Origin: Escherichia coli
GTDB lineage: Bacteria; Pseudomonadota; Gammaproteobacteria; Enterobacterales; Enterobacteriaceae
Assembly (NCBI RefSeq): GCF_003334315.1
Contig: NZ_QOWR01000100.1
Direction: 5' to 3' (one strand)
Length of the DNA: 4,320 nt
Shown here in pieces: positions 1,917 to 3,747 of the stretch. Each line of letters begins with the position of its first letter. Position 1 is the stretch's first letter. Below the pieces are notes generated by a model. That model was given only the letters and a program-made list of their open reading frames with translations, did not search any database and was not told the DNA's origin. The position numbers and the translations under genes are program-made.

Positions 1917-2261
1917 TTGGCAGACAAACGCAGCAAAATGCTCACGATGTGGGTGACCGAAGATGAGCACCGCCGTCTGCTGGAGCGCTGCGACGGTAAA
2001 CAGCTTGCAGCCTGGATGCGCCAGACGTGCCTGGACGAGAAACCCGCCCGCGCCGGCAAGCTTCCCTCGCTCTCGCCGGCGCTGCTTCGTCAGCTTGCCG
2101 GCATGGGGAACAACCTCAACCAGATTGCCCGGCAGGTTAACGCCGGTGGTGGCAGCGGGCACGACCGCGTGCAGGTCGTCGCCGCGCTGATGGCCATCGA
2201 TGCCGGACTCGAGCGGCTGCGGCATGCCGTGCTGGAAAAGGGTGCAGACGATGATCGTTAA
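1917..2261 (+). CDS. mbeC: Mobilization accessory protein MbeC/MobC (relaxosome component)
   Basis: Product contains MLTMWVTEDEHRRLLERCDGKQLAAWMR, which matches ColE1 MbeC and the pBR322 mob remnant (MKRERMLTIRVTDDEHARLLERCEGKQLAVWMR) as recalled. Strong SD AGGAGG at 1906-1911 lies 5 nt before a TTG at 1917; the alternative ATG start is at 1938. Stop TAA at 2259-2261 overlaps the mbeA start. Confidence 0.75.
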   Translation: MADKRSKMLTMWVTEDEHRRLLERCDGKQLAAWMRQTCLDEKPARAGKLPSLSPALLRQLAGMGNNLNQIARQVNAGGGSGHDRVQVVAALMAIDAGLERLRHAVLEKGADDDR

Positions 2262-3747
2262 GTTTCACCCGCGAGGGCGCGGCGGTGGCGCCGGTCCGGT
2301 GGATTATCTGCTGGGGAAAGACCGACAGCGCGACGGCGCCACCGTTCTGCAGGGGAAGCCGGAAGAAGTCAGGGAGCTTATCGACGCCTCGCCCTACGCA
2401 AAAAAGTACACATCCGGCGTCCTGTCCTTTGCCGAAAAGGATTTACCGCCCGGGCAGCGCGAAAAGCTGATGGCGAGCTTTGAACGGGTTCTGATGCCCG
2501 GACTCGATAAAGACCAGTACAGCGTGTTGTGGGTTGAGCACCAGGATAAGGGGCGGCTGGAGCTGAACTTCCTGATCCCGAACACGGAGCTGCTGACCGG
2601 CAGGCGTCTCCAGCCGTATTACGACCGCGCCGACCGTCCGCGCATTGATGCCTGGCAGACCATCGTGAACGGCAGGCTGGGGCTGCATGACCCGAACGCG
2701 CCTGAAAACCGGCGGGCGCTGGTCACGCCGTCCGCGCTGCCGGAAACGAAGCAGGAAGCCGCTCAGGCAATTACACGGGGTTTACTGGCCTTAGCCTCGT
2801 CCGGGGAGCTGAAAACCCGCCAGGACGTCACTGAGGCGCTGGAAAGCGCAGGTTTTGAGGTGGTACGCACCACAAAAAGCAGCATCAGCATTGCCGACCC
2901 GGACGGGGGGCGAAACATCCGACTGAAGGGAGCCATCTATGAACAGTCTTTTAACGCTGGCAAAGGACTTAGAGCAGAAATCGAAAGCGCAGCAGCAGAG
3001 TACCGGCGAGATGCTGAAAGCCGCATTCAGCGAGCACGAGAAGTCTGTCAGAGCGGAACTGAGCGAAAGCGAGAAGAGAATCAGCGCCGCCATCCTCGAC
3101 CACGACCGGAAGCTGTCCTCAGCCATGAGCCAGCGCACGAAAGGCATGGTGCGTATGGTCAGCCAGACGTGGCTGACCATCGTCCTGGTGTCTGCACTGC
3201 TGACAGCATCGGGCGCAAGCATTCTGTGGTGGCAGGGGCAGCAGATACTCGACAATTACACGACTATCCGGGAGCAGAAGCGCACGCAGGCCATGCTGTC
3301 CGAGAGGAACAGCGGCGTGCAGCTCTCGACCTGCGGAGAGCAGAGACGCCGCTGCGTGAGGGTGAACCCGGAAGCGGGACGGTTCGGAGAGGATTCGAGC
3401 TGGATGATACTGGCGGGGAAATAGCACATGACGGAGCTGGAAAGACAGTTGCTGAGCGCATTAGAGCAGCTACAGCAGGACTACTCGAAAAGGCTGGACG
3501 AGTGGGAGAACGCCTTCGCGGAATGGCGGACGATGTCTGGTCTTATGCAACGGGAGAACGCGGCGCTGAGCGAGCGCGTCACGGGCTTGAGCAGGCAGGT
3601 GCAGAGTTTGAGCGATCAGCTGCGCCGGTTGTCGAAAGGCTGAACTCGATTGAAGCACACAGGCAGCAGGAGCGGGCGGCGCAGCATCAGAAAACGCTGG
3701 AGCTGGAACGATCGCAGCGGCAGAAAGGTTTTGAGCTTGGAATGTAG
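2251..3747 (+). CDS. mbeA: Relaxase MbeA/MobA (ColE1-type, HEN family), 498 aa
   Basis: N-terminus MIVKFHPRGRGGGAGPVDYLLG, with the catalytic Tyr in VDYLLG at residue 19, and WVEHQDKGRLELNFLIP carrying the His/Glu/Asn residues, match ColE1 MbeA as recalled. The ATG at 2251 overlaps the mbeC stop by 11 nt. The track ORF starts at 2200, but the conserved N-terminus begins at 2251. Confidence 0.85.
   Translation: MIVKFHPRGRGGGAGPVDYLLGKDRQRDGATVLQGKPEEVRELIDASPYAKKYTSGVLSFAEKDLPPGQREKLMASFERVLMPGLDKDQYSVLWVEHQDKGRLELNFLIPNTELLTGRRLQPYYDRADRPRIDAWQTIVNGRLGLHDPNAPENRRALVTPSALPETKQEAAQAITRGLLALASSGELKTRQDVTEALESAGFEVVRTTKSSISIADPDGGRNIRLKGAIYEQSFNAGKGLRAEIESAAAEYRRDAESRIQRAREVCQSGTERKREENQRRHPRPRPEAVLSHEPAHERHGAYGQPDVADHRPGVCTADSIGRKHSVVAGAADTRQLHDYPGAEAHAGHAVREEQRRAALDLRRAETPLREGEPGSGTVRRGFELDDTGGEIAHDGAGKTVAERIRAATAGLLEKAGRVGERLRGMADDVWSYATGERGAERARHGLEQAGAEFERSAAPVVERLNSIEAHRQQERAAQHQKTLELERSQRQKGFELGM
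2939..3424 (+). CDS. mbeB: Mobilization protein MbeB/MobB, encoded entirely within mbeA in the +1 frame
   Basis: MNSLLTLAKDLEQKSKAQQQSTGEMLKAAFSEHEKSVRAELSESEKRISAAILDHDRKLSSAMSQRT... matches ColE1 MbeB as recalled. SD GAAGGGAG ends 6 nt before the ATG. A hydrophobic segment WLTIVLVSALLTASGASILWW suggests membrane anchoring. Confidence 0.75.
   Translation: MNSLLTLAKDLEQKSKAQQQSTGEMLKAAFSEHEKSVRAELSESEKRISAAILDHDRKLSSAMSQRTKGMVRMVSQTWLTIVLVSALLTASGASILWWQGQQILDNYTTIREQKRTQAMLSERNSGVQLSTCGEQRRRCVRVNPEAGRFGEDSSWMILAGK
3428..3643 (+). CDS. mbeD: Mobilization / entry-exclusion-like protein MbeD/MobD, nested within mbeA in the +1 frame
   Basis: MTELERQLLSALEQLQQDYSKRLDEWENAFAEWRTMSGLMQRENAALSERVTGLSRQVQSLSDQLRRLSKG matches ColE1 MbeD as recalled; predicted coiled-coil-like heptad pattern. 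Starts one codon after the mbeB stop, in the same frame. Confidence 0.7.
   Translation: MTELERQLLSALEQLQQDYSKRLDEWENAFAEWRTMSGLMQRENAALSERVTGLSRQVQSLSDQLRRLSKG

Follow-up and report, generated by a model that had tools for sequence, protein, structure and literature searches.

Layout of the mobilization operon

The stretch of DNA analysed here, called the window throughout, comprises 4,320 nucleotides (nt) of Escherichia coli contig NZ_QOWR01000100.1 (assembly GCF_003334315.1) and carries four mobilization genes, mbeC, mbeA, mbeB and mbeD, on its plus strand. The relaxase gene mbeA runs from ATG 2251 to TAG 3747, a frame of 498 codons with no internal stop. Wholly within it, in the +1 frame, lie mbeB (2939-3424, ATG to TAG, 161 codons) and mbeD (3428-3643, ATG to TGA, 71 codons), with the mbeD start 3 nt past the mbeB stop. 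Upstream, mbeC (1938-2261, 107 amino acids (aa), ATG 1938, stop codon TAA 2259-2261) overlaps the mbeA ATG at 2251 by 11 nt. The original prediction had described this nested operon, and its coordinates, frames, +1 nesting and 11-nt overlap all proved exact; mbeC itself falls outside the span 2251-3747 given there.

The same layout is found in ColE1 (NC_001371), where mbeC occupies 1867-2190, mbeA 2180-3733 and the nested +1 genes mbeB and mbeD 2868-3386 and 3393-3626. The two plasmids share gene order, strand, the 11-nt mbeC/mbeA overlap, the position of the mbeB ATG in the Tyr-Glu codons of the MbeA motif RLKGxxYE, and the relaxase residues Y19 and His-Glu-Asn (HEN). Protein identities are 69% for MbeC, 58% for MbeA, 63% for MbeD and about 30% for MbeB, and three of the proteins differ in length (MbeA 498 aa in the window versus 517 in ColE1, MbeB 161 versus 172, MbeD 71 versus 77). 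In the window mbeD starts with ATG 3 nt past the mbeB stop, whereas in ColE1 it starts with GTG 6 nt past it; unlike ColE1, the window has no exc1/exc2 or colicin genes downstream. In ColE1 the nic position is known, and all four Mbe proteins have reportedly been detected (Boyd et al. 1989).

The ColE1 arrangement claimed earlier is thus confirmed, and so is the claim of four intact frames: all are open, and an alignment check found them full-length relative to family models and to the ColE1 proteins. An origin of transfer (oriT, bom) core of ColE1 type lies upstream of the operon at 1766-1834 on the plus strand, 66 of its 69 nt being identical to the ColE1 oriT region in a pairwise alignment. 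The features of a ColE1-type operon, an upstream overlapping ribbon-helix-helix (RHH) gene, a nested mbeB, an adjoining nested mbeD and an oriT in cis, are all present. Bases 1-75 of the window recur at 4246-4320, indicating that the window consists of a 4245-bp circular plasmid plus a 75-nt wrap-around. We regard the region, with a probability of about 0.88, as an intact ColE1-type (MOB-HEN/MOBP5) mobilization module, carried by a complete plasmid of 4245 bp that has a ColE1 replicon and is of the same type as Salmonella Enteritidis plasmid pK. As originally stated, this is already known biology, a ColE1-type operon on a known plasmid. A degraded contrast is provided by pSa1423-10K (L024, NZ_MK356559; 801-1502), which is 95% identical at the nt level but has broken mbeA and mbeB frames, its MbeB being annotated as a 64-aa fragment.

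MbeA matched the NCBIfam model NF047848 (relax_MbeA_E1) at 914.5 bits (cut-off 500), with residues 1-493 aligned to positions 1-496 of 497. The catalytic residues Y19, H97, E104 and N106 are present, the last three in the sequence WVEHQDKGRLELNF, and are invariant in an alignment of 12 relaxases that extends to Campylobacter. Motif III in its HEN variant, which replaces the cluster of three histidines, defines the MOB-HEN group (PMC5030251, PMC12857230), and a relaxase motif list of 'Y19, SF, HQD-x4-ELNF' has been published (PMC9282650). By its motif I tyrosine, HEN motif and model match, MbeA is classified as a MOB-HEN (MOBP5) relaxase of 498 aa. An AlphaFold2 model built from a 12-sequence alignment was confident over residues 1-286 (relaxase domain and helices), had predicted local distance difference test (pLDDT) values of 27-43 over residues 287-400, and was helical with moderate confidence over 401-498. 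The top Foldseek match of this model was the R1162 MobA relaxase 2ns6 (probability 0.98, E=0.045, template-modelling score 0.41 on the target) and the second relaxase from the Protein Data Bank (PDB) was MobM 4lvl (probability 0.90); no match reached E<=0.001. A sequence search of the PDB returned no match for MbeA and a chance-level match only for MbeB.

The length of the relaxase varies between relatives (497-511 aa). In the PLSDB gene tables of the near-identical plasmids NZ_CP016532 and NC_003456 mbeA is missing and there is a gap in the locus tags; these tables leave out pseudogenes. The suspicion raised by this absence, that mbeA is a pseudogene, was rejected. The frame is open, the Prokaryotic Genome Annotation Pipeline (PGAP) calls the identical mbeA in NZ_CP124439 an intact 'plasmid mobilization relaxase MbeA', and such mis-annotation is documented, 487 ColE1-like mbeA loci having been wrongly classed as pseudogenes (PMC11229322, 2024).

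The accessory proteins were compared with family models in the same way. MbeC matched the Pfam models MobC (E=8.2e-14) and NikA-like (E=4.6e-9), shares 69% identity with ColE1 MbeC along all 107 residues and has R13; it is on these grounds assigned as a MobC-family RHH nicking-accessory protein. MbeB matched Pfam MbeB_N over model positions 1-52 of 52 (E=1.6e-22) and contains a hydrophobic 19-mer at residues 78-96 (mean Kyte-Doolittle value 1.93). This 19-mer is the one predicted membrane segment of the protein, which by homology with ColE1 would have an accessory role. MbeD matched the NCBIfam equivalog NF033829 with 110.4 bits (cut-off 60, model positions 1-69 of 69), is 63% identical to its ColE1 counterpart, and is predicted to be a helical or coiled-coil accessory protein, a 'mobilization/exclusion protein' in the naming of NCBIfam. 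PGAP places the mbeC start at 1938. An alternative in-frame start, TTG 1917, has AGGAGG 5 nt upstream, and ATG 1938 is without an obvious Shine-Dalgarno (SD) sequence; the alignment with the NikA-like model begins at residue 4 of the longer protein, and a longer MbeC of 113-114 aa is annotated in some relatives.

Nested genes and their start signals

The lengths of the nested frames were compared with those in shuffled sequences, in which the synonymous codons of mbeA were permuted without altering the MbeA sequence or its codon usage. Stop-free +1 runs of 165 codons or more arose in 1954 of 5000 shuffles (39%), and both runs together in 496 (10%). The observed number of +1 stops in mbeA was two, against a shuffle mean of 2.7, and the +2 frame has 29. 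Because Arg, Glu, Ala and Gly abound in the overlapped half of MbeA, few of its codons can form +1 stops. Open reading frame (ORF) length was rejected as evidence for mbeB and mbeD, since the shuffles reproduce it; the comparison has power only in ColE1 and AT-rich relatives. Both run lengths were reached in 9 of 3000 shuffles of the ColE1 gene and in none of 3000 for the relaxase genes from Acinetobacter (42% GC) or Campylobacter (33% GC). Two antisense ORFs lie opposite the mbeB overlap, at 2791-3255 and 3119-3427 on the minus strand (154 and 102 aa), and are most likely a by-product of the GC-rich, stop-poor composition.

Homologues of mbeB and mbeD were found in the +1 frame in every fetched enterobacterial relative with intact frames, at relaxase N-domain identities of 62-99%; in the OXA-232 ColKP3-type plasmid they are present though unannotated. 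Salmonella kanamycin-resistant ColE-like plasmids pSNC3-Kan and pSN11/00Kan have been described as carrying a mobC-mobA/BD operon with 'internally encoded MobB and MobD', a ColE-type oriT and a relaxase with Y19 and HQD-x4-ELNF (PMC9282650). Judged from the identity values published there, their operons belong to other lineages than that of the window, and these plasmids carry rom and Tn602. Outside the Enterobacteriaceae, MOB-HEN modules occur in Helicobacter pHel4 and pHel12 (PMC3447787), in the Neisseria gonorrhoeae cryptic plasmid, and in small plasmids of Acinetobacter and Campylobacter. Like the window they have MobC upstream, invariant Y19, H97, E104 and N106, and an MbeB-like +1 ORF starting at the same peptide motif; their relaxases are 34-59% identical to that of the window.

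Two of these distant plasmids contain unannotated nested genes. In that of Acinetobacter baumannii (L011) +1 ORFs were found at 2716-3324 and 3331-3744, and in that of Campylobacter jejuni (L012) at 2689-3144 and 3160-3462. The first ORF of each pair is MbeB-like, with N-terminal helices and a transmembrane segment. The second is MbeD-like, beginning MTELETQLL in Acinetobacter and MTTLELELI in Campylobacter. Matches of these ORFs to local hidden Markov models were weak to moderate. In N. gonorrhoeae pCryptic (L010) mbeB lies in the +1 frame relative to the continuing relaxase frame. The relaxase at 751-2155 of that plasmid is split into 751-1380 and 1349-2155, one frame apart, and the PGAP annotation accordingly has a 209-aa relaxase with a separate MbeB gene after it; the relaxase may be frameshifted, or the split may be a feature of the sequencing or of the lineage. 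Family matches, nesting conserved as far as Neisseria, Acinetobacter and Campylobacter, and the codon-position substitution patterns presented below together validate mbeB and mbeD as genes at the level of sequence comparison.

A small accessory gene within a relaxase gene is known from RSF1010/R1162, where mobB lies inside mobA in another frame. That system differs from the window in its family (MOBQ), its canonical three-histidine motif, its primase fusion and its MobB, which is unrelated to MbeB.

The translation-initiation region of mbeB (2926-2941, plus strand) is embedded in codons of MbeA. The SD sequence aagggag (2926-2932) lies in the Leu-Lys-Gly codons, and the ATG (2939-2941) in the Y230-E231 codons, of the motif RLKGxxYE. 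ColE1, the ColKP3-type plasmid, Neisseria and Acinetobacter have SD and ATG in the same places, and so does Campylobacter but for one inserted codon. Across the 12 relaxases R224, G227 and Y230 of MbeA do not vary, while K226 and E231 hardly do. For mbeD, an SD-like GGGGA is held by the last codons of mbeB. This junction is conserved among the relatives, which have a GGAG-like element in the end of mbeB and an mbeD start 0-9 nt past the mbeB stop.

Selection along the overlap

Substitutions were counted by parsimony on neighbour-joining trees of 10-11 close lineages and sorted by mbeA codon position, position 1 of mbeA being the third position of the nested +1 frame. In the non-overlapped relaxase domain there were 0.087, 0.061 and 0.655 changes per site at mbeA positions 1, 2 and 3, as in ordinary purifying selection on MbeA. 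Over mbeB the order changed, with 0.340, 0.142 and 0.130 changes per site (p=1.6e-5), the fastest being the mbeB wobble position. Over mbeD all positions were slow (0.139, 0.042 and 0.153 changes per site). In the single-coding tail of MbeA past mbeD (3644-3747, plus strand), which is variable and has indels, the mbeA periodicity was back, with 0.41, 0.33 and 1.27 changes per site (12, 10 and 38 changes; p=7e-6). This return implies that translation of MbeA runs through to the end.

When the mbeB overlap was split at the boundary of the predicted MbeA fold, the two parts behaved differently. Over the folded residues 230-286 there were 4, 2 and 12 changes at the three positions, falling on the mbeA wobble position, whereas over residues 287-391 (nt 3110-3424) there were 51, 18 and 10, falling on the mbeB wobble position (p=1.6e-8). 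Pairwise ratios of non-synonymous to synonymous substitution rates (dN/dS) over the mbeB overlap, calculated against the close relatives L015 and L016, were 0.13-0.14 in the mbeB frame and 1.3-1.5 in the mbeA frame. For the relaxase domain dN/dS was 0.04-0.09 in all comparisons but that with the near-identical L013 (0.20, from eight substitutions). Pairwise dN/dS against the distant relatives L014 and L017-L020 was uninformative over the mbeB overlap, both frames giving about 0.6-1.2 at 65-81% nt identity, as expected of saturated or mosaic sequence, and was replaced by the parsimony counts.

The mbeB segment (2939-3424) is only 65-69% nt identical in L014, L017 and L018, whose relaxase-domain and mbeD segments are 87-90% identical. 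The operon is a mosaic, in which the mbeB block may have been exchanged by recombination or have diverged very fast.

From these counts and the structure model, selective priority appears to lie with the MbeA frame over residues 230-286, with the MbeB frame over residues 287-391, where MbeA is predicted to be unstructured, with both frames over mbeD, and with MbeA in the tail. Within the mbeB overlap the two proteins would therefore largely take turns rather than share the constraint equally. The earlier claim that the overlap constrains the evolution of this region is accordingly only partly right: it stands over mbeD, where all three codon positions are slow, whereas the mbeB overlap is the most divergent part of the operon and has mainly one frame constrained at a time.

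Taken jointly, the conservation to Campylobacter of an mbeB ribosome-binding site and start within RLKGxxYE, a hand-off of selective priority from MbeA to MbeB, then to both and back to MbeA along the fold boundaries of MbeA, and the presence of unannotated MbeB- and MbeD-like genes in Acinetobacter and Campylobacter relaxase genes form a tentative picture, to which we give slightly less than an even chance of being correct as a whole. All three are modest refinements of a known system. In the library of papers searched, none was found stating the embedded start signal, the frame hand-off or the unannotated distant genes, parts of which may already appear in earlier work on ColE1 (Boyd 1989, Francia 2004, Varsaki 2003/2009).

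Plasmid context and mobilizability

The same 4245-bp plasmid was matched by megablast in many isolates of E. coli and Salmonella enterica, pK (NC_003456) being 99.9% identical to the window. Three fetched 4245-bp records differ from the window at 1-3 bases. At position 3444 the window has G and all three records have A, giving R6 instead of K6 in MbeD and no change in MbeA; pK further differs at 1071 and 2526. Near-identical copies, one base apart, come from Canada, Switzerland, the UK and elsewhere, with E. coli and Salmonella serovars as hosts. More distant relatives, at 83% coverage and 90-96% identity by megablast, were found in Klebsiella, Citrobacter and Enterobacter. The mbeB/mbeD segment is covered by ~600 PLSDB records.

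The replicon is marked as ColE1-type (RNAI/RNAII) by a match to RNAI (Rfam RF00106) at 1022-1122 on the minus strand, scoring 99.2 bits against a gathering score of 47. A tblastn search of the window with ColE1 Rop gave no match at E<=10. As rop is missing from many ColE1-like plasmids, its absence does not exclude a replicon of this type. Where ColE1 has rop, between oriT and mbeC, the window has at 1858-1902 an imperfect inverted repeat whose 21-nt arms are 76% complementary and separated by 3 nt; it may act as an operator or promoter. In some RefSeq records a 37-aa 'replication initiation protein' is placed within the RNAII primer region (1177-1290, minus strand), apparently through an error of annotation. 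At 211-238 lies a cer-type Xer recombination core, GGTGCGCCCAA-GGGATG-TTATGGTAAAT, which is probably the multimer-resolution site; the ColE1 cer core, at ColE1 position 3909, reads GGTGCGTACAA-TTAAGGGA-TTATGGTAAAT, with a central region of 8 nt there versus 6 nt in the window. Besides the mobilization genes the plasmid has only two ORFs, which are convergent: one of 172 aa at 3772-4290 on the plus strand, with a signal peptide (...VASA/EN), and one of 195 aa at 275-862 on the minus strand, encoding a lipoprotein with the lipobox AISGC. They sit where ColE1 has exc1/exc2 and the colicin genes, and neither has a family match in Pfam or NCBIfam.

By analogy with ColE1, MbeC would bind the oriT just upstream of the operon, and MbeA, a presumed HUH-type relaxase with a HEN motif III, would nick one oriT strand through Tyr19 and stay covalently attached to it. 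A conjugative helper plasmid in the same cell would then take over the relaxosome through its coupling protein and type IV secretion system, MbeA being transferred with the strand. Translation of mbeC and mbeA is probably coupled through their 11-nt overlap. From the same mRNA, mbeB and mbeD would be translated independently in the +1 frame, ribosomes starting at the internal SD and ATG in the RLKGxxYE codons and, for mbeD, 3 nt past the mbeB stop. The original prediction had argued that the plasmid is still mobilizable by a helper. Given the conserved oriT and catalytic residues and the occurrence of a near-identical plasmid across species and countries, this is a reasonable inference, and MOB-suite labels near-identical plasmids 'mobilizable'.

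Several observations weigh against the reading of the region as an intact, working ColE1-type module. Nicking, expression of the four proteins, translational coupling and mobilization are carried over from ColE1 by homology, and a sigma-70 consensus scan of 1600-3900 found no promoter. The F tra genes failed to mobilize pSN11/00Kan (<1e-7; PMC9282650), although its operon is intact and its ColE-type oriT conserved. The match of the MbeA model to solved relaxase folds is weak (E=0.045), and low pLDDT in MbeA is weak evidence of disorder because the alignment is shallow (12 sequences). MbeB is only about 30% identical to ColE1 MbeB, its curated model covers the first 52 residues only, and +1 ORFs of this length are statistically ordinary in a GC-rich mbeA. 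The selection analysis relies on parsimony and neighbour-joining trees of 10-11 lineages in a mosaic region where recombination is possible, and dN/dS estimates are intrinsically biased in overlapping frames.

It could be argued that mbeB and mbeD are chance open frames in a GC-rich mbeA coding for much Arg, Glu, Ala and Gly, named by annotation habit: the +1 run length is matched by 39% of shuffles, the +1 stop count is typical, and the minus strand of the same stretch has ORFs of 154 and 102 aa. This explanation is largely refuted, and we consider it very improbable, as chance would have to account for a match to MbeB_N at E=1.6e-22, an MbeD equivalog score of 110 bits versus a cut-off of 60, the presence of both ORFs, with frame and order unchanged, at 33% and 42% GC (0 of 3000 shuffles, and 9 of 3000 in ColE1), a conserved mbeB start codon and SD, and substitutions gathered at the mbeB wobble position (p=1.6e-8) in a gene with 29 stops in the +2 frame. 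A different objection concerns MbeA. If only its N-terminal ~290 residues mattered, the remainder would be tolerated read-through over mbeB and mbeD, and intactness to 3747 would mean little. Invariant columns do essentially end after residue 277, pLDDT is below 50 for residues 287-400, the mbeA-frame dN/dS is 1.3-1.5 over the mbeB overlap, and the tail is variable with indels. Yet mbeA is open for 484-604 codons in all intact relatives, even AT-rich ones where stops are frequent, third-position periodicity returns in the tail (p=7e-6), both frames are slowed over mbeD, residues 401-498 are about 60% identical to ColE1 by eye, and the NCBIfam MbeA model matches end to end. A dispensable C-terminal half is therefore unlikely, though not as improbable as chance nested frames.

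The objection we take a little more seriously than these, while still thinking it unlikely, is that the plasmid, though its operon is intact, in effect goes unmobilized in nature or has a narrow set of helpers, so that intactness reflects recent descent and not ongoing selection for transfer. Such a view draws on the failure of F to move pSN11/00Kan (<1e-7), on the lack of a consensus promoter in 1600-3900 and on the existence of broken operon copies such as L024. It fits poorly with the strong purifying selection on the relaxase domain (dN/dS 0.04-0.09, with L013 at 0.20; 0.66 versus 0.06-0.09 changes per site) and with the occurrence of the plasmid, one base apart, in E. coli and Salmonella serovars from several countries. 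The mobC-mobA/BD plasmids pSNC3-Kan and pSN11/00Kan were, moreover, mobilized by IncP tra genes at frequencies of ~0.7-0.8, pSN11/00Kan at 0.78 (PMC9282650). We therefore retain the reading of an intact and probably mobilizable module. Its helper range (IncF, IncI or IncP) cannot be read from intactness, because the intact pSN11/00Kan was not mobilized by F.

This small cryptic plasmid, widespread in Salmonella and E. coli, thus keeps a complete mobilization module and should therefore be counted as mobilizable in plasmid epidemiology. Surveys based on gene tables can understate mobility, because the relaxase gene is often missing from such tables or called a pseudogene. In the distant plasmids of Acinetobacter and Campylobacter, annotation overlooks the nested mbeB-like and mbeD-like genes entirely. 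The frame-by-frame pattern offers a clean small example in which the constrained part of one protein would lie over a tolerant linker of the other, and the apparent hand-off between frames moderates the idea that overlap simply slows evolution.

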